Assembly: GCA_964495875.1 (NCBI GenBank)
Contig: CAZBWB010000001.1
Span: forward strand, 315,122 to 379,121
Origin: Candidatus Woesearchaeota archaeon
GTDB taxonomy: Archaea > Nanobdellota > Nanobdellia > Pacearchaeales > GW2011-AR1
Reading direction: 5' to 3'
Length of the DNA stretch: 64,000 nucleotides
Shown: positions 6,227-52,024 of the stretch, one piece after another
Position numbering within the stretch: the stretch's first letter is position 1
How the letters are laid out: every line of letters starts with the position of its first letter
Notes under the pieces: generated by a model
Database searches by the model: none
The model's input: the letters and a program-made list of their open reading frames with translations, nothing else
What the model was told of the DNA's origin: nothing
Program-made: the position numbers and the translations under genes

Positions 6227-7930
6227 TTATTTCTTTCTCTTCTTAGCTGCAAATCCACCGCCAACAATCACTGCTACTAAGATAACACCAATTGTAATCC
6301 ATAGCCACAAAAGATTTCCTGCTGCAGCTTCTTCCTCTTCTTCATAACCTTTCTCTGCAATAGCAAAATAACTGAAACTTGTTAACTGAACATCATAATA
6401 GTAATAACTGTCATCTTCTTCTTTATATACTGTTGACAATTCATCCCACTTTCCTGCAGATTCATCAAATCTATACAGAGCAATATTAGCTTTGTCTATA
6501 TTATTATCCAATAACCAATCCTTCTGCACTTTAATTGTAAGTGTAGCTTTATCTAATTTATCTCCTAGATTTTCTGATTCAATTTGTAAATACTTATGAA
6601 CATTTCCTGCCTTTGAAACAGTAATTTCCTCTGGCTGAGTATCAAATTTCTTAACTGTAATTTTCACATTACTTGCTGCTTCTTTAACTGTAACTTTTAT
6701 CTCTTTTACTCCCATATCTTCTTGGAAATTAGATAGCACTACTTCTTCACCAGGAGTTGCAGCCGCTATTACATTTTTCTTTTCAACTGTTGTAGAAGGT
6801 CCTTCTACACCAGGACTACTACTATCACTACATGAAAGTGTAGAAAAACTAGTTGAATCTGAGTTCGAACTATGACCTACTTGATCATAACAAGTAACAA
6901 TATATGAATAAGATGTGCCACAATTTAATCCAGTATGGGTTAAGGTCTGAGTTCCTGTTCCTCTTCCAGTAATAGCAATATTAGAACCTCCAACAGTACA
7001 CTGATCAATCCCACTTCCATTTCCTGCCGCAGCATCAATAGCAGTAATTGTAATCACATTTTGAGTCTTTGTACTTCCCGTTCCACGAGTTAAAACAACT
7101 GAAGATGGAGCAGTATCGTCAATTGTTATTTGAATATATTCACTATTATTAAGATGAACTGCATTTGAAAGAGTATCATTCATGCTATCATTAGCATAAA
7201 CAGTGATATTATATTTTCCATCAGGATAATCTGTGACATTAATAGTAGTATTGTAAAAAACACCAATACTAGTCTTGTTTCGTGCTCTTGTCCAATTATC
7301 TTTTGGTGCTCGCCCACCACTTGAATTAGTAACATTAATATAAACAAAAGTAAAATTAACACCATAAACAACATCATATGCGCTCACATTTATGTTAATA
7401 TTTCCAGCATTCGCAGAAGTATAATTTCCATTATTAACTACAGAAGAAGTAGTGCTTGTAAAATTAACTGCTGGAGGAATGCTATCAAAAGTTACATTTT
7501 TAACAGATGTCCAATTTTGAGAACTTCCATTATTTGCAATACAACTAACATTATATAGTCTTCCAGATAAGCTACTAATATCTATTATACGAGTAAAATT
7601 TGTTCCATTTCCCCCAGCACTACCATTCCACATAACAGGCGTTAAATTACCAAAATTAGCTGTATTAGTCATATTAAGGTTCTCGATTGGTCCTCCACTT
7701 GCATTATAGAAACACGTTACATTAAAACTCGTTGCTGTAGAATTAAGTGCTGTTGTAAGATTTAAAACTATAGTTCCAGAATAATTTCCTCCATCTATTA
7801 AACTATCATTAAACTGAATAGGAGCACTAGTAGGTATTGCAGTAATAAACCAAGCACCCAAAACAATAACTAAGATTGTCCCAAAAAATATATTCATCAA
7901 AGTCTTTGCATCAAATTTTTTATTCACCAT
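6227..7930 (-). CDS. Surface (S-layer-like) glycoprotein with PGF-pre-PGF-like C-terminal module and TM anchor
   Basis: N-terminal signal/anchor, dozens of N-x-S/T sequons, and Ig-like repeats. The C-terminal module is VHKYLQIESENL ... WDELSTVYKEEDDSYYYYDVQLTSFSYFAIAEK, followed by a hydrophobic helix and KKRKK. This module is homologous to the C-terminus of the 3169-aa protein. Confidence 0.6.
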   Translation of the reverse strand: MVNKKFDAKTLMNIFFGTILVIVLGAWFITAIPTSAPIQFNDSLIDGGNYSGTIVLNLTTALNSTATSFNVTCFYNASGGPIENLNMTNTANFGNLTPVMWNGSAGGNGTNFTRIIDISSLSGRLYNVSCIANNGSSQNWTSVKNVTFDSIPPAVNFTSTTSSVVNNGNYTSANAGNININVSAYDVVYGVNFTFVYINVTNSSGGRAPKDNWTRARNKTSIGVFYNTTINVTDYPDGKYNITVYANDSMNDTLSNAVHLNNSEYIQITIDDTAPSSVVLTRGTGSTKTQNVITITAIDAAAGNGSGIDQCTVGGSNIAITGRGTGTQTLTHTGLNCGTSYSYIVTCYDQVGHSSNSDSTSFSTLSCSDSSSPGVEGPSTTVEKKNVIAAATPGEEVVLSNFQEDMGVKEIKVTVKEAASNVKITVKKFDTQPEEITVSKAGNVHKYLQIESENLGDKLDKATLTIKVQKDWLLDNNIDKANIALYRFDESAGKWDELSTVYKEEDDSYYYYDVQLTSFSYFAIAEKGYEEEEEAAAGNLLWLWITIGVILVAVIVGGGFAAKKRKK

Positions 7931-41094: not shown

Positions 41095-44000
41095 TTATTT
41101 TTTTCTTTTCCATTTATAAAACTTTTCTCCCCTACCTGTTCCCACTTTTTCTCCTTTTCTTCTTTTTAACAATACAACGATGCCTGTAATAACTAAAACA
41201 GCACTTCCAATACCAATCAAAATCCATAACCAATAAGATTTAATTATCTCAACAAAACTGTTTAGTATTTTTCCAGTTTTTTCAAATATTTTCTCTTTAA
41301 CTTTTTCAGGCTCTTCGATAATCTTTCCAGCAATTACAAAATAACTAAATGAATCTAATTCAAGATCATAATAATAGTATCCATCATCTTCACTAATATA
41401 ATTAGTTTCCAGCACTTCCCACTCTTGAGAAGATTCATTAAATCTCAATATTTCAATATTGTCTCTCTCAATTTTATTCTCAGAAAGCCAGTTTTTCTCA
41501 ACCCAGATGATTATTACACTTTTTTCCAAGTTCTTTTCTAAATTTTCTGTCTCAATTTGAAAGTACTTATAGACTTTTGCCTCAATTTCTTTTTGAACTT
41601 CTGTCAATTTGCTGGCATGACTGATAACAGTTATTCTAGCGTTTTGTGTTTTATTTTTAACCTCAATTTGAATCTGTTTTATTCCGATTTCTGTGTCAAA
41701 ATTCTTCATTATTTCTATATCTCCAGGAGTAATTAATGGAAATAAGTGAGTATTGTTTTCTGCTGCAGATATTTTTGTCTCTCTCCCTCCTCCGCCGCCC
41801 CCTCCCCCACTGACAGGGCTAGTATAGGCAACAGTTAAGTTACGAGTTGAAGAATTTCCCATATTTCCTGAGAAATCAGTGCAATTGACACTCCAGTTAT
41901 AGGGGGCATTAGACAATGATCTTGTCAATGTCTGTGTTGTATCTCTTGTTACAGAACTCTCTGTATAACTTATATTGCTGTTTAATATCAAACTGCAATT
42001 AGATATACTATTCTCATCAGTAACATTATAACTGAAAGTAACTGTTGAACTTGATGTCCATCTTGACCCACCACTAGGAGAGACCAGACTTACTACAGGA
42101 GAAGTAGAATCAAGGATACTTAAATTATAAACTAGAGAAGTTCCTATATTATTATTGGAATCAGTGCAATTGACACTCCAGTTATAATTTCCATTAGCAA
42201 AAGTCTGGACAAATGTCTGATTTACATTTCTTGTTACAGAAACATTTGTCTGGTTTATTATATTATTAATTATCAAAGAACAGTTGTCTATAGAACTTGC
42301 ATCAGTCACGTTATAGATGAATGTGACTGTACTTGTAGAACTTGCTGAATTATTCCCAGGATAAGTTAAATTTATTGTTGGTGCTGTTGAATCAATAGTA
42401 AAGAATATTGTTGATGAATTTTCATTGCCAAGAGTATCATTAGCCCAAACAGTTACATTATGACTTCCCTCACTCCATGTCACACCAGTAATATTAGTTC
42501 CACAATTTGCTAATGAAACATTAACTTCCTTAGTATCATTGTGATACCAACAATATGCCAGATTAGTATCTGAAACACTATAGTTTACATTCAATCCAGT
42601 ATTAGAATGATTAGAAGCATTTGTTGGATATGTTATATTGATATCAGGATTTACTGAATCAATCATAAAAAACACTATTGAACTATTCTCATTTCCCACA
42701 GTATCATTAGCCCAAACAGTTACATTATGCTCTCCTTCACTCCATGTTACTGTTGTGATATTAGTTCCACAATCTGCCAATGAAACATTAACTTCCTTAG
42801 TATCATTGTGATACCAACAATATGCCAGATTAGTATCACTCACACTGTAATTTACATTAAGATTAAGATTAGAAGAGTTTGTATTATTAATTGGATATGT
42901 TATATTAATATCAGGATTAGTTGTATCTATATTAAAAGTCATATTAGTCGAGTTAGAATTTCCTAAGGTATCATTGCAGTATACTGTCCAAGTGTTATTT
43001 CCTTCTATAGAAGATAATCCTGTCCAATTAGTTCCCATTGCCACAGGAGATGATTTTGTAGCTCCGCTATCATTAGACCACTGACAATATCCGGGATTAC
43101 TTTCAATATAAGTGTAATTAATGGCAGTAACTTCTGCATTATATGATATATTTGAAGGATAGTCGAAGGTAATTTCAGGATTAATTGTATCTATCATAAA
43201 GAACACTATTGAACTATTCTCATTACCAGCAGTATCATTACACCAAACCGTAGCATTATGCTCTCCCTCTGACCATACTACAGAAGTTACATTTGCACCG
43301 CTTGATAAGGTTGTATTCTTTGAATTTGTATCATTCGTATACCAGCAAGATGCCAGGTTTGTATCTGAACGACTGAAATTGATATCCAAGTTTACATTAG
43401 AAGAGTTTGTATTATTAATTGGATAAATAATATTGATATCAGGATTAAAATTATCCTGGAAATATGTTACACTTGTAATTCCAGGATTATCCAGAGTATC
43501 ATTACAATATAAAGTTAAATTATTTGAACCCTCAGCAGAGTTGATATTTGTAAAGTTGGTTCCCATTGCCACAGCGGTGGAATTGGTTGTTCCACCATCC
43601 AGACTCCACCAACAATGTCCTGGATTTGTCTCAACATAAGTATAATTTAGTTTAGTTATATTTACATTATAAGTCTGATTAGCAGGATATGCTATTGTCA
43701 TTGAAGGAATTGAAGAATCTACAAAAAATGTAACAGTTTCTGAATTATTTATGTTATCTGAGGTATCGTTACAATAAAAGACTGCTGTATTAGAACCCTG
43801 TGATGCTGTTCCTGTCGCATTCCAGTATGTTGGTGAAGTTGAAGCATTTGTCATAGTATGGTTTGTATTTCCTGAATCAAGTGAATACAAACATGTGCTC
43901 ATTCCTGTCTCATCTACAGCAGTAACATTGAATGTGATTGTAGCATTTGTATATGTTGTATTACCAGGAGTGTTGATTGTTACATTTGGTGCTATTGCAT

Positions 44001-47000
44001 CAGTTATACTCAGAGTATAATTGCTATCTCCCCAATCACTATTGCTATCATTATCATAAGCTAAGCAATTCCAAATATAAGTTCCTGTAGATAAATTCTT
44101 AATAAAAGTACTTTCATTAGATGTCCCTGTAACATTACTTGTCTCATTCAAATGCCATCCATCACTCCAGTTTCCATATAAGCTTATGTTCACTAAACCA
44201 GAATTATCAATTGCTGAACAATTGAATGTTATTGAAGTTGATGAAGTTGAATTTCCATTAGCTGGGGAATTTAGTGTTACAACAGTATATTGAGATACTG
44301 GGTTATATTCATATGCTCCTATATCCCATTCTGCACTTCCATTGCTATCACCATCTATTGGTCTAACCACACCATTAAAACTTGTATTAAAAATATTGGA
44401 AAGGTCTGTTCCATTGTCAATTGCTGGAGAGTTGACTGTTAAAGTTGTTTCAGTTGAACTATATTCTCCAGAAGGGATAGCTTGCCATAAAGGATTTCCA
44501 TCAAATTCACCAGTTCCCAAAGTTACGCCCCTAGAACCAGAGGGGAAATAATATTGATTATAAATATGTGTTGCATAATTTGCATCTACATTCAAACATG
44601 ATCCATTGCCTGCTTGGTAAAATATATTGTTTTTCATATCTACAAGTTCATTAGACGTCATAGCCAGGCTTGTCCCTAAAATGTAATTGCTATTATCAGC
44701 ATAAATGGAATTATGATAAAATTTGATATTTAAATTGTCTTCAGAAGAATAGAAAAATATAGGTATACTAGAATTATATATAAGATTGTTATAAATCTCT
44801 ATATAATTTGATGTACTATTCATACCATTAACTGTTAAAAGATACGGCCTTCTGGTATCTGGATTATCTCGTATTAAGTTTGAATAGATTTTCCCATAAC
44901 TAGATGAGCCTCTAATTTGAAGAAGAGCATTGTGATCCCAACCAGCATCATCAGAAAAATAATCTTGTTGAATAGAATGATGAAACTCATTATGGTGAAT
45001 AGAGAAGTTTGGAGAATATCTTAGTTCATTTCCCCTATGTGCATATCCAACAATATTATATCTAACAGTTAAGTTGTCATTATTTTGACTTGCATCATCA
45101 GCTGCAAAATCTAAACAATAATTATTCCCTCCCCAACTAAAGTTGCTTGATATGCCATTCCAATATCCACACTCATCAACATCACACCATTCAACAATTG
45201 CATTATCAGAATCATCTGCTATTTTAATTCCTTTGTTATAAGTATGTTTTGAATTACAATGAAAAAGCCAAGCACTTTGTGCTGGAGTTCCATTATATCC
45301 TTTTATATGAATATTACCATCTTCATCACCATCAGCAGAACAATTATAAAAATCCATGTCAATAAGGTTTAAATATTGGCCCATCCCACTGTAGAACCCT
45401 CTACCACCAGCATTTTGAACTCTTAATCTTTGAAGAGTCACGTATTCTTTTTGAGTAGCACTAAAGCAGATACTTCCCCCTTCAGAAGCATTTATAATTG
45501 GCCGTTCTTGATTATAACCAACAAGAATAAATCTACTAGTGTCATTAGTTCCAGAGGGCAAACTAAAGCTATATTCATTATAAATTCCATCCCAACCACC
45601 ATGTGCTCCTCTTATTATAATAACTTTATCTCCTGAGACTGCTTGAGTTAGTGCATACCCAATAGTCGCGCAAGGAGAACCAAAAGTCTGACAATCTCCT
45701 GTATCAACCCCATCTTTCCCGTCAACATAATATTTTGTTCCCAGATAATAAGTTTTACCATTTGGATATTCATCATTTTTAATACTATAACTAGTTGTAT
45801 TCTCATTTATTGGAAAAGGAGTTGCATTAAAAATCCCTGCAGGTTTTCCATACCTATCAATACGATCATCCCATGAGAAATAATCTCCAGCACTAAAAGT
45901 GAGCAGACTAATATTTCTAACTTCTGAAATATTTGTATTAGTTCCATCTGAGCAATTAATCCACCATGTATAATCATCATTTCCCAGACTTGCATTTGCA
46001 GTAATTGTTGTTGAAGTAGCATTAAGAACAGATGAATTGTTTCCATAAGCCATATCACTTCCATTATTCAACCACAACAAACAATCGAGGATTGAAGCTG
46101 TTTCATCTGTTACATTAAATACAAAATCAGGAGTGTTGTCAGTAGTATTCAAGGTATTATTTGCAGGAGATTCTAAATAAACACTTGGTGCTGTTGTGTC
46201 TCCTGCACCGGTTATATTCAATGTATAATTAGCTGTTCCAAACCTGCAGTTGTTCTCATCATCACAAACATAACAGCTCCATTCATAATTTCCAACTGAC
46301 AAGCCACCAACACTGAAATTTGTTTCATTAGTTGTTCCTGTCACATTATTAGTTCCCTCAACACCCCACGCTCCTGACCAATTTCCATACAAACTTATAT
46401 TCACCAAACCAGAACTATCAATTGCAGAACAATTGAATGCAACAGTTGTACTGTTAGTTGAATTCAGATTTGACGGAGAATCCAAATCTACTCCCGGTAT
46501 TCCTGAAATCAATGGGTGTGGATAGTAATAAGGTTGATATAATTTTCCTGTAATAGTTTGTCCAATTGGATTAGTAAGAAAATAATTAGTATCCTCAACG
46601 ATATAAGAAGCGCATGATTCATTATTTAACTGAAATGTCACTGGATCACCATTTACCGTATTATTGTAAAAATATGTATCCTCAATTGGATCATAAGAAG
46701 TTGAATATTGGAAATCTATTCCTGTCTCCCATGTAATGTAGACATCAGGAACAATTTCTGTAATTTCCCAATAGTCAGTCCAATTTGCACCAGTCCCTGG
46801 TTCAGAATTTGCTGTTGATGTGTGATCCTGTAGACAAATATACTCTTCGCCGCCATGAGTACAAATAGCCGGAATCAGATAGTCATCGTAGACATCGTAT
46901 TCACTGAGCAACACATATGATGCTGGCGATCCTCCGGTGAGCGTATTGTTATACATCAACAGCCGTCCACCTCGCATATTTATCCATACGTGACTAGATG

Positions 47001-50000
47001 GACGGTTTGTTTCGAAAATATTATTATATATCTCTCCAGTCATGACAGCACGCGCCTGTGTATATCCTGGAATAACTGGATCATGATTATTTCCATGTTG
47101 GTTGATGATAACTGATTCAGTTAATCCCGTAAACGTGTTATATCTAACAACATATCGAGCACCATTACTATTTTGGAATAATGTTGATGCTCCGCTGTAA
47201 GTATTATCTTCAAAAAAGAAGGTATGTGAAGTACCATATTCGGGAGTAAATGTGTCATATGTAGTTTGATCAAGTCCGAGCACTTGTAAATCATCCGTAT
47301 TATTAACAAACTGATTATGATCAGCCACGCCATAAATTGAACCAACAACATCAATCCCTTGAAAATTCCCTCGTGTTATATAACAATTATGTACTCTAAT
47401 TTGAGTAATTGGAGTAGTAGTAGGATTATATAACTTTATACACTTCGAAATATCCGCACCATCTAATCTAATATTGCTCAAGACAAATAGTTCATCATTG
47501 GCTGGCGTTGACGGATAATAATAAATCAATGCACTAGTTTTGCTGTTTATGCCGCTTGTGATGATCGTATTTGCTACACCACTACCGGTAAGATACATTC
47601 CCTTGTCAATAGTTAGTGTATTACTCCACGTACAATTTCCAGCAGGAACCATTACTGTCATCCCACTCGTTGCATTAGCTACAGTAATATTCACATTTTC
47701 ATATGAACAACTGCATGCCTGCAAATGCGTTGAATTAATCCTAGTAAAATTCCCTGTGCAAATACTCAAACTTCTAATCTCACTAATATTTGTATTAGTT
47801 CCATCTGAGCAATTAATCCACCATGTATAATCATCATTTCCCAGACTTGCATTTGCAGTAATTGTTGTTGAAGTAGCATTAAGAACAGATGAATTGTTTC
47901 CATAAGCCATATCACTTCCATTATTCAACCACAACAAACAATCGAGTATTGAAGCTGTTTCATCTGTTGCATTGAATATAAAATCAGGAGTGTCATCCGT
48001 AAAGTTCGTTGTATCGTTTGCAGGAGATTCTAGATAAATACTGGGTGCTGTTGTATCACTTGTTATAGTAACACTCCTCTTTTCAGTATAATTCATATTA
48101 GAAGCATTATCCACTACATATGCCTGGTATGTATAAGTGCTATTTGAGAGTCCTTGAGTTGAATTAAATGATTGATTAACATACAAACTCCATTTGTCTG
48201 TATCATATTTTCTGAGATTCATGAAATAGAGTTGCTGAACTTCAGTTTCACTTAAACTTCTGTTCCAAACCATTATTTCATCTAAGGCATCCTGTAAATC
48301 ATTGCCTGAATTTCCTTCTATTCCGATAAGCATTGGCTGATTTGGATTAGAAATCACTTGCCCGATTGTAGGTTCTGTGGTGTAATCTATTCCATCTACA
48401 TAAATAGTTGCTGTAGTCCCCTCAATTACACCTACAATAAAATGCCACTCTGTATCTAAATTATAAGTTGCGAGAGCATAATCAGAACCACCCCCATACA
48501 ATGCGATATTATCACTTCCTGGATCATGATTAAATCCGAATCCTGCTGCATCCTCCCAACTATTTGCTTTTGAAATTATATCTGTCCAACTACTATCTTC
48601 GGGGTTATTAATTTTCATCCAGACAGCCATAGTCAGATTAGTGATCAAATCAAGACTTGTATCATTTGAGCAATTAATATATGTTCCTGAACCTGTGAAA
48701 TTTAATGCTTTTCCATATCTTCCCTGCATAGAGTTAGGGCATGATGCTCCATAACAAACTCCATCATTTCCATAACTGCTGATATCAGCAAAATTAGTAT
48801 CATTCTCTCCAATAGCAGACACATTGTCAAAATTCATCATTAAAACCAGAGAATTATCAAAAACAGAATAATTGGTTCCATTCCAGTTGAATGTTATATT
48901 CCCGACATCAGTAGCATTTGTTATTGAAACATTGATTTCTACACTCGTCTCTGATTGAGAGCTTCCATTATTTGGTGTTGGTGGAACAAAACTAAGATTA
49001 TAAGCTGATGCGGGATCAACAATATAATCAACCTCTATTGAATCACCAATGATCTTCAAATCAAAAACATCCTGTGTTCCCATTAAATCAGCCAGATAAA
49101 CCTTGTACCATGCTTCATCATTTATATTATCAAAAGTTGCTATCAGTTCATCTTCATCCTTTTCATAAACTTCAATACTTGAACTTTGATCAGCTCTTGC
49201 ATAAAGGGTTATATCTCCCTCGCTAGTTAAATTCTTTTCAAAAACAATCCTAACATATTCTCCTTCTTTGATTGGTTCACTCCATATGTCATCTTTGGCT
49301 TTTACTTCATCATAAATATCTGAAATAAATACTCTATTCTCATCGAGATGCTCTGCTTTTGTTATTTCTATAACCAACTCATAACTCTGGCTACTCAAAC
49401 TAGGAATAATCCATTCAATAGAATCAATCAAAGAATTGTTGTTAATATCTATATAATCAACAATCTCAACTGATTCTTTGATACCTCCAGTAGTTCTATA
49501 CAGCTTAACAGCATTTTTGGGAGCTTCTTTTGGCAGCTCTGTGAATGCCAGAACATTTTCATAATGGATATCATCAGGACCAACAATAGTTATTAACTTC
49601 TTATCTTTCTGCTCTTCTTCAACTGAATAAGGTGCAGGAGTTTCATATTCAATTTCCACTTCTTCAACAGCTCCTTCAACATCAACAACAATGTTTTCTC
49701 TGCTTTCAATATTTTCTACAAGAAATAATCCAGTAAATCTTATTATATTCCTAAACCACCCCATAACAGAAGATGTTTTTGTATTTTCTCCCACAATATT
49801 TCCTGTAATATCAATTTTGATTCCTTGTTCTGTTATATTAGTCTCTTTCTCTCCAATCTCTTCAGTTTCATTAACATCAATCTCGGCTGTTTCATTAACT
49901 TCTTCTGTAACATTAATCTTGCTTTCCTTTGTATCATTAATCTCTTTTGTAAACTCATTTTCCTCTGTTACATTTCCAGGAACTGTTATATTAACTTCTT

Positions 50001-50604
50001 CTGTTATATTACTCTCTTTTTCGTTAGTACTTTCATTAATTTTTTCTATCACATCTTCAGGTTCTTCAATCTTTTCTGTAATTTCTGTTGTTTTTTCAGA
50101 CTTCTCTTCTTTTGCAACATTAATCCCTTCTTTTTCATCTCCGGTAATTTTCACAACAGAAATATTTGTTGCAATAGAAGGTAGTTCAACAGAAATATTT
50201 GCAGGTTCTGATAATTTTATATTTTTCTTCCATTGAACAGGTTTTCCAAGCACTGCTCCATACTGAATTGTATCTATTTTAATTTCAGGAGTTTCATCAA
50301 TTTCCGCCTGTTTTTCAACAAAAGCCTTTTCTGCTGTTACATTTGTAGTATTGATATCACCCATATTTAATATCGTTTGTCCTGTAAAGTTTAAATTAAG
50401 AAAAAAGACTAAAGATAAAGCTAAAATAGCAATTAATATGGGTAAGGTAAAAGATATTTTGAAAAATTTTTTCCATTTATTTTGATTACTTTCTGCTTTT
50501 CCGAGATATTCTGTAATTACCTTTCCATTCTCTTTTCTGTTATGATAACGATATGGGCCATAAAGCTTATCCCCCCTTTTTACATACTTCTCGTATACCA
50601 TCAC
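41095..50604 (-). CDS. Giant (3169-aa) membrane-anchored surface protein/adhesin
   Basis: One uninterrupted ORF with, in order:
- a basic N-terminus (YVKRGDKLYGPYRYHNRKENGKVITEYLGK) and a TM helix;
- an E/T/N-rich low-complexity stalk;
- a LamG/ConA-like lectin segment (ALNFTGSGTYINCS ... LDEIMVWNRSLSETEVQQLY, about 48220-48780);
- two right-handed beta-helix regions;
- many Ig-like repeats rich in N-x-S/T;
- a poly-Gly hinge (about 41786-41809);
- a PGF-pre-PGF-like module, a C-terminal TM and a basic tail. Confidence 0.8.
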   Translation of the reverse strand: MMVYEKYVKRGDKLYGPYRYHNRKENGKVITEYLGKAESNQNKWKKFFKISFTLPILIAILALSLVFFLNLNFTGQTILNMGDINTTNVTAEKAFVEKQAEIDETPEIKIDTIQYGAVLGKPVQWKKNIKLSEPANISVELPSIATNISVVKITGDEKEGINVAKEEKSEKTTEITEKIEEPEDVIEKINESTNEKESNITEEVNITVPGNVTEENEFTKEINDTKESKINVTEEVNETAEIDVNETEEIGEKETNITEQGIKIDITGNIVGENTKTSSVMGWFRNIIRFTGLFLVENIESRENIVVDVEGAVEEVEIEYETPAPYSVEEEQKDKKLITIVGPDDIHYENVLAFTELPKEAPKNAVKLYRTTGGIKESVEIVDYIDINNNSLIDSIEWIIPSLSSQSYELVIEITKAEHLDENRVFISDIYDEVKAKDDIWSEPIKEGEYVRIVFEKNLTSEGDITLYARADQSSSIEVYEKDEDELIATFDNINDEAWYKVYLADLMGTQDVFDLKIIGDSIEVDYIVDPASAYNLSFVPPTPNNGSSQSETSVEINVSITNATDVGNITFNWNGTNYSVFDNSLVLMMNFDNVSAIGENDTNFADISSYGNDGVCYGASCPNSMQGRYGKALNFTGSGTYINCSNDTSLDLITNLTMAVWMKINNPEDSSWTDIISKANSWEDAAGFGFNHDPGSDNIALYGGGSDYALATYNLDTEWHFIVGVIEGTTATIYVDGIDYTTEPTIGQVISNPNQPMLIGIEGNSGNDLQDALDEIMVWNRSLSETEVQQLYFMNLRKYDTDKWSLYVNQSFNSTQGLSNSTYTYQAYVVDNASNMNYTEKRSVTITSDTTAPSIYLESPANDTTNFTDDTPDFIFNATDETASILDCLLWLNNGSDMAYGNNSSVLNATSTTITANASLGNDDYTWWINCSDGTNTNISEIRSLSICTGNFTRINSTHLQACSCSYENVNITVANATSGMTVMVPAGNCTWSNTLTIDKGMYLTGSGVANTIITSGINSKTSALIYYYPSTPANDELFVLSNIRLDGADISKCIKLYNPTTTPITQIRVHNCYITRGNFQGIDVVGSIYGVADHNQFVNNTDDLQVLGLDQTTYDTFTPEYGTSHTFFFEDNTYSGASTLFQNSNGARYVVRYNTFTGLTESVIINQHGNNHDPVIPGYTQARAVMTGEIYNNIFETNRPSSHVWINMRGGRLLMYNNTLTGGSPASYVLLSEYDVYDDYLIPAICTHGGEEYICLQDHTSTANSEPGTGANWTDYWEITEIVPDVYITWETGIDFQYSTSYDPIEDTYFYNNTVNGDPVTFQLNNESCASYIVEDTNYFLTNPIGQTITGKLYQPYYYPHPLISGIPGVDLDSPSNLNSTNSTTVAFNCSAIDSSGLVNISLYGNWSGAWGVEGTNNVTGTTNETNFSVGGLSVGNYEWSCYVCDDENNCRFGTANYTLNITGAGDTTAPSVYLESPANNTLNTTDNTPDFVFNVTDETASILDCLLWLNNGSDMAYGNNSSVLNATSTTITANASLGNDDYTWWINCSDGTNTNISEVRNISLLTFSAGDYFSWDDRIDRYGKPAGIFNATPFPINENTTSYSIKNDEYPNGKTYYLGTKYYVDGKDGVDTGDCQTFGSPCATIGYALTQAVSGDKVIIIRGAHGGWDGIYNEYSFSLPSGTNDTSRFILVGYNQERPIINASEGGSICFSATQKEYVTLQRLRVQNAGGRGFYSGMGQYLNLIDMDFYNCSADGDEDGNIHIKGYNGTPAQSAWLFHCNSKHTYNKGIKIADDSDNAIVEWCDVDECGYWNGISSNFSWGGNNYCLDFAADDASQNNDNLTVRYNIVGYAHRGNELRYSPNFSIHHNEFHHSIQQDYFSDDAGWDHNALLQIRGSSSYGKIYSNLIRDNPDTRRPYLLTVNGMNSTSNYIEIYNNLIYNSSIPIFFYSSEDNLNIKFYHNSIYADNSNYILGTSLAMTSNELVDMKNNIFYQAGNGSCLNVDANYATHIYNQYYFPSGSRGVTLGTGEFDGNPLWQAIPSGEYSSTETTLTVNSPAIDNGTDLSNIFNTSFNGVVRPIDGDSNGSAEWDIGAYEYNPVSQYTVVTLNSPANGNSTSSTSITFNCSAIDNSGLVNISLYGNWSDGWHLNETSNVTGTSNESTFIKNLSTGTYIWNCLAYDNDSNSDWGDSNYTLSITDAIAPNVTINTPGNTTYTNATITFNVTAVDETGMSTCLYSLDSGNTNHTMTNASTSPTYWNATGTASQGSNTAVFYCNDTSDNINNSETVTFFVDSSIPSMTIAYPANQTYNVNITKLNYTYVETNPGHCWWSLDGGTTNSTAVAMGTNFTNINSAEGSNNLTLYCNDTLDNPGITSVTYFQDNFNPDINIIYPINNTNSSNVNLDINFSRSDTNLASCWYTNDTNSKNTTLSSGANVTSVVWSEGEHNATVWCNDTAGNENSSIVFFMIDTINPEITFDYPSNISYNAEVTAINYTYIESNPGYCQWSNDSGATKSSPVAMGTNWTGLSSIEGNNTWTVYCNDTLGNSNSTNMTFNIDTTNPDINITYPINNTNSSNLNLNVNYSVSDTNLAYCWYHNDTKEVNVSLADCGTNITTVTWSEGEHNVTVWANDTVGNENSSIVFFMIDSVNPDINITYPTNASNHSNTGLNVNYSVSDTNLAYCWYHNDTKEVNVSLANCGTNITGVTWSEGSHNVTVWANDTLGNENSSTIFFTIDSTAPTINLTYPGNNSASSTSTVTFIYNVTDASSIDNCSLIINNIINQTNVSVTRNVNQTFVQTFANGNYNWSVNCTDSNNNIGTSLVYNLSILDSTSPVVSLVSPSGGSRWTSSSTVTFSYNVTDENSISNCSLILNSNISYTESSVTRDTTQTLTRSLSNAPYNWSVNCTDFSGNMGNSSTRNLTVAYTSPVSGGGGGGGGRETKISAAENNTHLFPLITPGDIEIMKNFDTEIGIKQIQIEVKNKTQNARITVISHASKLTEVQKEIEAKVYKYFQIETENLEKNLEKSVIIIWVEKNWLSENKIERDNIEILRFNESSQEWEVLETNYISEDDGYYYYDLELDSFSYFVIAGKIIEEPEKVKEKIFEKTGKILNSFVEIIKSYWLWILIGIGSAVLVITGIVVLLKRRKGEKVGTGRGEKFYKWKRKK
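45928..46089. repeat. Intragenic 162-bp perfect repeat, copy A (continues at lower identity to about 46200)
   Basis: Identical to 47785-47946 (offset 1857 bp). Encodes DETASILDCLLWLNNGSDMAYGNNSSVLNATSTTITANASLGNDDYTWWINCSDGTNTNISE in both copies. Confidence 0.85.
47785..47946. repeat. Intragenic 162-bp perfect repeat, copy B
   Basis: See copy A. The first mismatch is at 46090/47947. Confidence 0.85.
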
Positions 50605-50617
50605 ACCCTCTTATTTT

Positions 50618-50722
50618 TTATAAAAAGGGTAGTACAACTATTTAAGGTTATTGTTTTTATACTTTTTATCTTCTCTATCTTTTAAATTTATAAAAAAAGG
50701 TAGTACAACTATTTAAGGTTAT
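50618..50722. promoter_or_regulatory. Duplicated TATA-like plus 24-bp element upstream of the giant gene
   Basis: GGTAGTACAACTATTTAAGGTTAT occurs twice (50628-50651 and 50699-50722, 71 bp apart). Each copy is preceded by TTATAAAAA(G/AA). Copy 1 lies 24-47 nt upstream of the ATG at 50604 on the coding strand. Confidence 0.35.
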
Positions 50723-50819: not shown

Positions 50820-51629
50820 TCATAATAATTCTCCTAAAATTTTAGCTCCTAACTGAACAGTCATATTATCTCTGTCTTTGTCAGGATTAATTTCAACAAT
50901 ATCTATTGCTTTTAATTTTTTAATCTTGTTTATTCTCTGGATGAGATAAATAAATTGTCTACTCATCAGCCCTCCTGGTTCTCTGTGACCTGTTCCAGGA
51001 GCAAAAGCTGGGTCAATGACATCTATGTCAATTGAAACATAAAGCTCTTTTCCTGATGCAAACTCCATAAGAGTATCACAAGCATCTTCTATATTAGATA
51101 AAAAATGATTAATGTTAAGAGTTCTGATATTATGTTTTTTTAAAAATTCAATCTCATCTTTCCATACATTTCTCAATCCTACAATTAACACATTTCTGGC
51201 AGGAAAGCCTTCTTCAATTAACTTGCTCAGCCATTCTTCATGTGTAGGCTCTTTCATGGGTTGCATACAATCTGGATGAGAATCAAAAACAATCAAGCAA
51301 GGTTCTTTATCTGAATTTTTGCAGTAGTCTAAAAATGCCTTTGTAGTTGAATAACTAATCGAATGGTCTCCTCCCAGAAAAATTGTTTTTGGTTTTGTCT
51401 CAAAAATCTTCAAAGAATTTTTATAAATTAAATTATTAGACTCTTCAATATTGTTGTTATCTAAATGAATCTCTTCTAAATCCAAAAGTCTTATGTCAAT
51501 CGGGATTCCCTGCTCATTTGCATGAATGTTTTTAATCTCATTTAAAACAGCATTAGCTGCTTTCTCGCATCCTTTTGTTTTTCCTAACCCGTTTATTCCA
51601 GGAATCTTTACGATAAACATAAAAATCAT
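50820..51629 (-). CDS. speB: Agmatinase/arginase-family ureohydrolase
   Basis: Mn-binding motifs LGGDHSISY, VFDSHPD and SIDIDVIDPAFAPGTG, plus EINPDKD. Confidence 0.8.
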   Translation of the reverse strand: MIFMFIVKIPGINGLGKTKGCEKAANAVLNEIKNIHANEQGIPIDIRLLDLEEIHLDNNNIEESNNLIYKNSLKIFETKPKTIFLGGDHSISYSTTKAFLDYCKNSDKEPCLIVFDSHPDCMQPMKEPTHEEWLSKLIEEGFPARNVLIVGLRNVWKDEIEFLKKHNIRTLNINHFLSNIEDACDTLMEFASGKELYVSIDIDVIDPAFAPGTGHREPGGLMSRQFIYLIQRINKIKKLKAIDIVEINPDKDRDNMTVQLGAKILGELL

Positions 51630-51676: not shown

Positions 51677-52024
51677 TTAAACAATAGAATAAAATTCTTT
51701 CTTTACTTTTTTAAAAATTTCTTGATTCAATTTAGCGATTTTCTTTATAACAATTGATTTTTCTATAGTAAATAATTTGTCTATTTTAATTAAACTTTTA
51801 ATTGGAATTTGTCCAAAAAGGAGATTATGGTTTTCTATTGCTACAGAATGTTCTTTATCTCTTAAATTAGAAGTAATGCCGCAAATAATTAAATCTTTTG
51901 AATTTTTATTATCTTTGTTATTTGATAAAATTAAAACAGGTCTCCTTTTTATATTGCTTAAATCAGAAAAGGGAAAAGGAACTATTAAAATTTCACCTTG
52001 TTCATACTGTATCCCAAATTTCAT
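51677..52024 (-). CDS. PemK/MazF-family toxin
   Basis: GEILIVPFPFSDLSNIKRRPVLILS is a MazF/PemK N-terminal signature. 115 aa. It overlaps the upstream antitoxin gene. Confidence 0.7.
   Translation of the reverse strand: MKFGIQYEQGEILIVPFPFSDLSNIKRRPVLILSNNKDNKNSKDLIICGITSNLRDKEHSVAIENHNLLFGQIPIKSLIKIDKLFTIEKSIVIKKIAKLNQEIFKKVKKEFYSIV

Follow-up and report, generated by a model that had tools for sequence, protein, structure and literature searches.

How should one read a single gene that takes up 1.5% of a tiny archaeal genome, and what might its product do? The gene lies in a 64,000-nucleotide stretch of DNA from a Candidatus Woesearchaeota archaeon, the whole of which we call the window. 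The window comes from contig 1 of a five-contig genome that totals 632 kb, with 88% completeness and 32% G+C. Its minus strand carries, from 41095 to 50604, one uninterrupted open reading frame (ORF) of 3169 codons counted from a GTG, with no internal stop. This is the largest ORF of the genome, the next one having 2006 amino acids (aa), and we refer to its product as the giant. For DPANN archaea, which live in attachment to other cells, the foremost candidates for the means of attachment are their giant surface proteins. To our knowledge, none of these proteins has been characterised in Woesearchaeota or Pacearchaeota.

We find that the giant is probably a heavily N-glycosylated, membrane-anchored surface fibre of this Pacearchaeota (DPANN) archaeon, and that its gene starts with a conserved 5' cassette. 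In this cassette a TATA-linked word, GTTRYMCTAC, goes with a short N-terminal head, the YGPY module, and it does so across many genomes. The initial annotation, made from the sequence of the window, had proposed a glycosylated adhesin or carbohydrate-active surface fibre. The domain inventory fits such a protein and the genome encodes an STT3/AglB oligosaccharyltransferase. The giant might thus be pictured as a fibrillar adhesin with glycan-acting heads, which would bind, and perhaps cut or modify, polysaccharides on a partner cell or substrate; the domain types suggest that it could serve in host contact. Our domain map adds two beta-helices that standard annotation misses and a module that roughly half of the phylum's sampled genomes contain. 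One of the beta-helices reveals a large family with enzyme-like conservation, and the short head and the 10-base word travel together across dozens of genomes.

Topology and glycosylation of the giant

Exactly two segments of the giant exceed the Kyte-Doolittle threshold, aa 47-75 (50380-50466) and aa 3124-3148 (which together with the 21-aa basic tail, aa 3149-3169, spans 41098-41235). Residues are numbered from the GTG, and all features of the gene are on the minus strand. The first 46 residues hold 12 K/R against 5 D/E and the last 21 hold 10 against 2, while the flanks on the opposite sides of the two helices are acidic. Because both ends are basic, the positive-inside rule predicts that both termini are cytoplasmic. 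The protein would then run from a basic cytoplasmic head of 35 aa through the first membrane helix to ~3,050 residues outside the cell, and return through the second helix to the basic tail. The membrane helix at each end with its basic flank had been noticed in the initial annotation, which considered this two-ended topology unusual. The second part of that statement does not stand: of the 89 giant relatives, 40 carry a hydrophobic helix near each terminus, and their cytoplasmic tails range from 0 to 1168 aa.

The outer part is densely covered with potential glycosylation sites, in agreement with what had been proposed. The giant has 174 N-x-S/T sequons, against 70.4 ± 6.9 in shuffled sequences. 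Their distribution is uneven: per 100 aa there are 9-11 in the immunoglobulin-like (Ig-like) parts and 0-3 in the beta-helices. The low-complexity segment that follows the first helix (aa 76-285, 49750-50379), also with sequons, had been described as an E/T/N-rich stalk; its composition of 18.6% E, 12.9% I, 11.9% T, 10% K and 9.5% N bears this out and adds I and K.

Domain architecture and relatives

Outside the membrane, the acidic stalk would lead to a tandem beta-sandwich module, a LamG lectin, two beta-helices flanked by Ig-like modules, about nine further Ig-like modules, a Gly hinge and finally a PGF-pre-PGF domain at the membrane. A recurrent L/I-T-G-x motif, also present in relatives, comes after the first helix, and an 'xITGx' strand precedes the tandem beta-sandwich module (aa 285-565, 48910-49752), which was delimited from relatives and AlphaFold2. 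The LamG/ConA-like lectin region (aa 566-810, 48175-48909) matches Pfam Laminin_G_3 (PF13385) at aa 638-790 with an E-value of 5.5e-18 and 66 bits against a cut-off of 27.6, over profile positions 2-151 of 151. The unit recurs as repeats in many relatives. Internal repeat analysis places Ig-like modules at aa 811-944 (47773-48174) and aa 1366-1554 (45943-46509), on either side of beta-helix 1 (aa 945-1365, 46510-47772), and beta-helix 2 follows at aa 1555-2100 (44305-45942). The long array after it (aa 2101-2932, 41809-44304), recognised from hidden Markov model (HMM) matches and periodicity, has about nine Ig-like modules with a period of ~89 aa (267 nt), most of which carry a Cys pair at the sequon density given above for Ig-like parts. 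Pfam matches in the Ig-like parts are to Big_13, Big_7 and, weakly, PKD. A hinge of eight Gly residues (aa 2933-2940, 41785-41808) separates the array from the PGF-pre-PGF domain (aa 2972-3093, 41326-41691), which TIGR04213 recognises at 1.2e-20 with 74 bits against a cut-off of 28. Lectin, Ig-like modules, hinge and PGF-pre-PGF domain had all been read from the sequence in the initial annotation, and all are recovered here.

The Ig-like modules keep traces of recent exchanges. The segments at aa 856-950 and aa 1475-1569 are 91% identical (299 nt at 90% identity in the DNA), which is probably the mark of a recent internal duplication or recombination, and those at aa 1361-1484 and aa 2098-2217 are 52-57% identical. 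Because of these repeats, the two 'Ig - beta-helix - Ig' cassettes have shared flanks and unrelated cores, which looks like recent recombination between Ig modules.

The 89 giant relatives, whose organisms are Pacearchaeota, Woesearchaeota or Nanoarchaeota where a name is given, have modules in common with the giant but not its full architecture, and the best ones cover only 17-26% of its length at 35-44% identity. The membrane-proximal tandem module is common to 36 of the 89. Its AlphaFold2 model, from an alignment of 19 sequences, has two all-beta domains at a predicted local distance difference test (pLDDT) score of 80. Foldseek gives only weak galactose-binding-like or CBM32-type matches (TM about 0.2-0.3) and no Pfam family matches it. 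A six-frame search finds the module in 143 of 301 genomes sampled from the phylum and in 112 of 225 genera, nearly always in large open frames of a few hundred to ~10,000 aa, some of which end at contig ends. Its two halves also occur apart.

The same module stands under a different head in a second giant of this genome, of 1840 aa (G000 C1:280005-285527, plus strand). This head is a helical segment of ~90 aa, MRRTRIARDRLEEL..., followed by a helix, and the C-terminal part of the protein has a pair of helix-turn-helix-like repeats (PF08281). Ten of the 89 relatives belong to this type, and none of them has a second membrane helix by the hydropathy threshold.

The head module and its promoter word

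The initial annotation saw a short basic segment at the N-terminus of the giant. The segment is indeed basic, but it is also a conserved module of 35 aa that co-occurs with a promoter word. This YGPY module (aa 2-36, MVYEKYVKRGDKLYGPYRYHNRKENGKVITEYLGK, 50497-50601), predicted to be cytoplasmic and shared with relatives, stands at the start of 21 of the 89 giants as MVYKKYIKRGGKVYGPYxYHSRKVNGKVxxEYLGK, then a membrane helix, with M1, Y6, K12, G15, P16, Y17, Y32 and G34 invariant. We found it in 38 of the 301 genomes and in 10 of the 13 of the window's own family, at one to three copies per genome, most of them heading frames longer than 1000 aa. The second YGPY gene of this genome (locus L011, G000 C1:175957-176994, minus strand) encodes a 345-aa membrane protein.

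The giant itself most likely starts at 50601 and has 3168 aa, because codon 2 of the ORF is an ATG, because the database copy and all relatives begin with MVY, and because a Shine-Dalgarno-like run, AAGAGGGTG, lies just upstream of this ATG. Further upstream are two exact copies, 71 bp apart and found nowhere else in the genome, of a 24-bp repeat, ATAACCTTAAATAGTTGTACTACC, made of a TATA-like TTAAATA box and, directly after it, the word GTTGTACTAC. The proximal copy is at 50628-50651 on the minus strand, with its word at 50629-50638, 36 nt before the ATG, and the distal one is at 50699-50722 on the same strand, with its word at 50700-50709.

From the upstream DNA of 31 module-headed genes in about 25 genomes we derived a strict form of the word, GTTRYMCTAC (GTT[AG][CT][AC]CTAC). 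On the sense strand and within 200 nt of the start, this form precedes 16 of the 31 genes, against a mean of 0.08 and a maximum of 2 in 1000 shuffles. A looser form precedes 27 of them (shuffles: mean 6, maximum 13), and when later loci are included the strict form is found for 19 of 34 genes. In this genome it has 7 copies where composition predicts 8.5; four are inside genes, and the other three, the only intergenic ones, precede the two module-headed genes. Five other genomes (~5.5 Mb) together have ten copies of the exact word GTTGTACTAC, eight of them at the 5' end of a module-headed gene, and in two of these five genomes the sole copy is at such a gene. Three metagenomic giants examined after the rule was set all have the strict word, at -31 to -38 and directly after a TTTAAATA box. 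L012, the one module-headed gene that has no promoter of its own and lies without a gap behind another gene, lacks the word. That the word is real and specific to module-headed genes is, we think, hardly open to doubt.

The word takes one of two positions, directly against the TATA box or with its start about 27-38 nt past that of the TATA box, and in the latter case it lies near the expected transcription start. In four promoters identical copies on opposite strands flank the TATA box. From what is generally known of archaeal promoters, these positions and the inverted pairs are, quite probably, those of a repressor operator. Other roles for the word were considered and rejected. A general promoter or initiator element is at odds with its absence upstream of the other ~770 genes of the genome. 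The inverted copies could be taken for the arms of an invertible, phase-variation promoter, but most promoters have a single copy or direct copies, and no more than 34-86 bp separate the arms. Were the word a recombination site for the exchange of cassettes, it would be expected at module borders, and it is at the promoter.

In two other genomes (G204 C1:158994-159366 and G246 C5:8230-8583), one or two extra exact copies of GTTGTACTAC are found on the opposite strand, 120-350 nt inside the 5' coding part of the module-headed gene, in addition to the one that precedes its start codon. These may be auxiliary sites.

Autoregulator or export leader

If the word is an operator, what binds it? The variants of the word differ between paralogues. 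In this genome they are GTTGTACTAC for the giant and GTTACCCTAC, 17 nt before the start, for the 345-aa gene, and three other genomes (G300, G106 and G241) have two or three different variants each. Orthologues keep their variant across genera: GTTCTCTTAC is on both arms in L019 and in L026, with unrelated DNA between. Variation of this kind argues for a binder specific to each gene, for which the gene's own basic head is the simplest candidate. We thus tentatively propose that the cytoplasmic head, nascent or tethered to the membrane, binds the word and represses its own promoter, in a ToxR-type arrangement. The YGPY head would be a mini DNA-binding domain and the giant a one-piece, membrane-tethered autoregulator, with its own variant of the word for each paralogue. 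The surface fibre would set the transcription of its own 9.5-kb gene and might couple it to contact outside the cell. Promoter, word and head would make a portable 5' cassette, related to the heads found on tRNA synthetases and a Fic protein in this genome. One might speculate that the benefit lies in limiting re-initiation on a 9.5-kb gene whose product must thread through the membrane. If the head does bind the word, it would be a new minimal DNA-binding module, and these archaea would have wired a surface fibre directly to its own gene.

Several points weigh against this account of the fibre and its cassette. The motif was defined on part of the data in which it was later counted; independent evidence comes from the scans of whole genomes and from the three later loci. 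The word could, in some promoters, be part of the 5' untranslated region. Searches of Pfam with the head give only sub-threshold matches to DUF4326 and DUF6788, and its profile has no significant match in the PDB, where no solved DNA-binding domain is matched. The likeness to the heads of soluble enzymes, which lends the proposal some weak support, is only suggestive (hhalign P 3.5e-4, probability 37%, for YGPY against the 'KKYYY...YLG' N-terminal domains). In the 21 full-length giants the module always precedes a membrane helix, as a leader for secretion or insertion would. As for the fibre itself, no full-length orthologue of the giant exists among the relatives, and its adhesive and enzymatic activities are deduced from folds only.

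The head might accordingly be a leader that helps very large cargo across or into the membrane. It would then correspond, in an archaeon, to the extended signal-peptide region of autotransporters or to the YSIRK leaders on surface proteins of Gram-positive bacteria. The word would be bound by a separate regulator or act as a special promoter element of this class of genes, and the giant would have no contact with DNA. We regard this as a serious, if doubtful, possibility. The module is always at residue 1, a membrane helix comes within about 10-55 residues of it in 21 of 21 full-length giants and in the 345-aa protein, most carriers exceed 1000 aa, and no known DNA-binding fold gives the module a significant match. 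Yet if one separate regulator served all these genes, one would expect one word, and the variants differ between paralogues and are kept in orthologues. Such a factor would serve just two genes here, given that the intergenic word is found only before the two module-headed ones, and no conserved regulator gene is a shared neighbour of module-headed genes. The related small heads on soluble enzymes, which come with palindromes of their own, are not explained by a secretion leader either.

The two beta-helices and the function of the fibre

The initial annotation had proposed two right-handed beta-helix regions. Pfam Beta_helix (PF13229) has no direct match to either region of the giant. Domain searches and structure prediction on segments nonetheless sustain both regions, as they do the lectin, and we accept both as right-handed beta-helices, the second by transitive homology. 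Is the giant then above all an enzyme? It might mainly be an enzyme-display fibre for feeding, with beta-helices acting as lyases, hydrolases or epimerases on external or host-envelope polymers and with LamG and Ig-like modules positioning them, and the evidence on the two regions bears on this reading.

The AlphaFold2 model of beta-helix 1 has a pLDDT of 84 and a predicted TM-score of 0.82. Its 50 best Foldseek matches in the PDB are all right-handed beta-helix proteins, nearly all of them carbohydrate-active enzymes (CAZymes) or phage tailspikes, and include alginate epimerases and lyases, PL6, GH87, pectin methylesterase and phage depolymerase tailspikes; those named in a viral library are pectate-lyase-superfamily tail proteins and similar beta-helix proteins. 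Such company favours an enzyme, although TM-scores are low (0.3-0.46), sequence identity is 9-15% and membership in a CAZy family cannot be demonstrated. The profile of the region finds the PL6 alginate lyase BcAlyPL6 at 1.5e-5 for the full sequence, with only the N-terminal cap aligned, the individual stretches weak and no catalytic residue assigned; weaker matches are the phi29 pre-neck appendage, adenovirus LH3 and AlgE4. An inserted loop (aa 1236-1273) resembles chitin-binding domains of the CBM5/12 type, which would suit an enzyme as well; the match to that of ChiA1 is very weak (E 0.48) and sub-threshold CBM_5_12 matches agree with it.

The relatives of beta-helix 1 add to this. Among 1.84 billion representative proteins 2539 match at E <= 0.001, mostly as free-standing proteins of 400-500 aa, and no Pfam or NCBIfam model covers the family. 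A 16-sequence alignment has near-invariant E188, R210, N212, H226, E247, Y249, N251, R267 and N276 (segment numbering), and these polar residues fall on successive coils. In the giant, E188, H226, E247 and R267 correspond to E1132, H1170, E1191 and R1211. Family size, free-standing members and invariant residues all speak for the enzyme-display reading, and an enzymatic activity of beta-helix 1 is plausible. In the family (P0092-P0252) one also finds conserved FFEDN, RYNT, HGN, E.Y.N and RGG motifs and a C-terminal PYxYPHPL, which in the giant reads PYYYPHPL; several members have hydrophobic, signal-like N-termini. Because the family occurs in only 5 of the 301 genomes of the phylum, beta-helix 1 counts as an accessory 'head', probably an acquired one. 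A single-sequence search with it across the genome contigs returned no close relative.

Beta-helix 2 has one close relative, the N-terminal part of the giant P0007 (2e-91), and only two giant-length relatives. Its residues 119-546 align at 1e-7 to residues 2773-3198 of P0007, a piece that scores 2.2e-18 with Beta_helix and 1.5e-15 with NosD. It is capped by a choice-of-anchor Q match (HMM, aa 2054-2101), ending in 'DIGAYEY'. A phmmer search of the PDB with this region gave nothing useful, and its profile matches the GH120 beta-helix xylosidase 3vst (3.4e-7), again an enzyme. Still, many beta-helix surface proteins are pure adhesins, and display of enzymes is itself compatible with adhesion. 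We thus consider it rather unlikely that feeding is the main role of the giant, and retain the glycosylated surface fibre.

Anchoring at the C-terminus

The PGF-pre-PGF domain usually precedes an archaeosortase signal, and this raises the question of whether the C-terminal helix and tail are cut off, leaving a mature protein linked to lipid or to the S-layer at its C-terminus. The genome does encode a sortase, a pacearchaeosortase (NF033505, 217 bits against a cut-off of 80), adjoining a PACE-CTERM putative S-layer protein (NF033506, 414 bits), and the terminal helix of this neighbour has a Trp-rich start like that of the giant (NWPIWVIG and YWLWILIG, respectively). Yet the C-terminus of the giant has no match to the PACE-CTERM model and none to PGF-CTERM at E <= 0.1, and archaeosortase A (TIGR04125) was not found in the genome at 88% completeness, so that we do not take this end of the giant for a signal of either type. 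P0007, the closest relative to share its juxtamembrane motif, has FVExxKxYW, helix and basic tail like the giant; tails of 21 aa here and 109 aa there are long for a signal, and they reach the maximum given above in the giant class. Cleavage by the pacearchaeosortase is therefore very unlikely in our opinion. Processing does not seem needed to explain the C-terminal helix, because the tail is long for a sortase signal, the PGF-CTERM motif is missing and no archaeosortase A was detected. The two-ended layout is common in the giant class and is best read as a stable double anchor.

The sortase locus (G000 C2:52240-55170) has the pacearchaeosortase, of 189 aa, directly after the PACE-CTERM protein, which is 560 aa long and ends in ...GGITGGIISEGNWPIWVIGAVNVVLIFIIILVALKVAKK. 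This sortase pair and the names of the giant's relatives place the organism with DPANN archaea of the Pacearchaeota type. The window also has a second PGF-pre-PGF protein (6227-7930, minus strand), of 567 aa, with 85.6 bits for TIGR04213 and an Ig-like part. Its C-terminal 'LLWLWITIG' helix and KKRKK tail are like the anchor of the giant, likewise without a PGF motif.

Integrity of the gene

The 9.5-kb reading frame of the initial annotation is thus open throughout, with the small correction of its start. Assembly collapse is unlikely, because no internal DNA repeat of the gene is close or long enough. An assembly artefact, or a decaying gene open by chance, is scarcely credible: the gene does contain tandem and dispersed repeats, but these do not exceed 90% identity over 299 nt, 9.5 kb remain open at a G+C content that makes stop codons frequent, homologues or a confident fold exist for every segment, and the ordered N-to-C architecture is common to relatives.

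Relation to known systems

LamG-, PKD- and Ig-rich giant surface proteins of DPANN archaea have been proposed as attachment factors (PMC10266531, PMC7414124). Like those of Nanohaloarchaeota, Undinarchaeota and Woese- or Pacearchaeota, the protein described here is huge in a tiny genome, has LamG and Ig-like repeats, is membrane-anchored, has a proposed role in attachment to hosts or glycans and has a strain-specific architecture. It differs from them by its two beta-helices, its PGF-pre-PGF domain, its tandem beta-sandwich module and its YGPY head. The SPEARE-type giants of nanohaloarchaea (PMC10266531) have a VirB4/TraG-like ATPase or protease part, which is missing here. We rejected a relation to them since no ATPase or protease match was found in the 3169 aa with Pfam or NCBIfam. 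As an adhesin, the giant would hence belong to a known class with a unique architecture, and the cassette of head and word is the new part. Neither this cassette nor the module at aa 285-565 was found described in the literature searched, in which nothing relevant appeared on pacearchaeosortase, DUF6788 or autoregulation of DPANN adhesins.

The giant also recalls the fibrillar adhesins of bacteria, with a stalk of ~13 Ig-like modules (including the array of 89-aa units), a lectin (LamG) and beta-helices as 'business' domains, and an anchor of membrane helices. Unlike them it is archaeal, N-glycosylated rather than wall-linked, and has membrane helices at both ends. Moreover, bacterial fibrillar adhesins have adhesive modules only at the tip, whereas in the giant they are interleaved with stalk modules.

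The proposed regulation has its closest analogues in the transmembrane transcription regulators ToxR, TcpP and CadC (surveyed in PMC10269533). Both have a basic N-terminal domain, predicted to be cytoplasmic in the giant, a single membrane helix followed by an outside part and a DNA word at the target promoter, here the gene's own. In those regulators, however, the outside part is a small sensor, whereas the giant has a 3,000-residue adhesin and a second membrane helix, and its 35-aa head matches neither the winged helix nor any known DNA-binding family.

The fold of aa 945-1365 is that of the AlgE4 and AlgE6 epimerases, of PL6 lyases (chondroitinase B and alginate lyases) and of tailspike depolymerases, and the sequence of its N-terminal cap is like that of BcAlyPL6. 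It stands apart from beta-helix CAZymes by its low identity to them, the lack of a family HMM match, its own PYxYPHPL and its place inside a giant. Finally, the substrates of the PGF-CTERM/archaeosortase A system, such as the S-layer glycoproteins of haloarchaea and methanogens, also have a PGF-pre-PGF domain before a C-terminal helix and basic cluster. They differ from the giant by the PGF motif and PGF-CTERM match, and the system by its ArtA; in this genome the sortase is a pacearchaeosortase with a dedicated neighbour of its own.

Other heads and neighbouring genes

A small 'KKYYY...GKKV...YLG' domain heads four genes of this genome: a 544-aa ORF for a putative ProRS (G000 C1:258277-259911, plus strand), a 152-aa protein (C1:157490-157948, plus strand), a 572-aa class II synthetase-like ORF (C1:278148-279866, minus strand) and an ORF of 286 aa in which a Fic-type HPFxxGNGR motif is found (C3:50488-51348, minus strand). 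Profiles of these heads have only WW-domain-like matches in the PDB, at E > 0.1. Each of the four genes has its own inverted repeats flanking or following the TATA box, e.g. ACGTACCATTAC...GTAATGGTAACGT before the Fic gene and TTGTAGTGCCTACAA before the synthetase.

Scans of the window for tRNA genes and Rfam families came back empty. The giant is flanked by an arginase-family gene and by a LigT-type phosphoesterase gene that begins 7 nt past its stop. The former, agmatinase-like, lies directly upstream of the promoter region (50820-51629, minus strand), and a MazF/PemK-type toxin gene (51677-52024, minus strand) lies on the same side. The 345-aa YGPY gene of this genome follows a conserved gene of ~350 aa, which likewise adjoins the orthologue of the YGPY gene in a second genus (L013). 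In two unrelated samples a module-headed giant (L042 and L043, relatives P0004 and P0033) comes directly after the genes for aIF5B/IF-2 and ribosomal protein S6e, and the giant of this window sits at a different spot.

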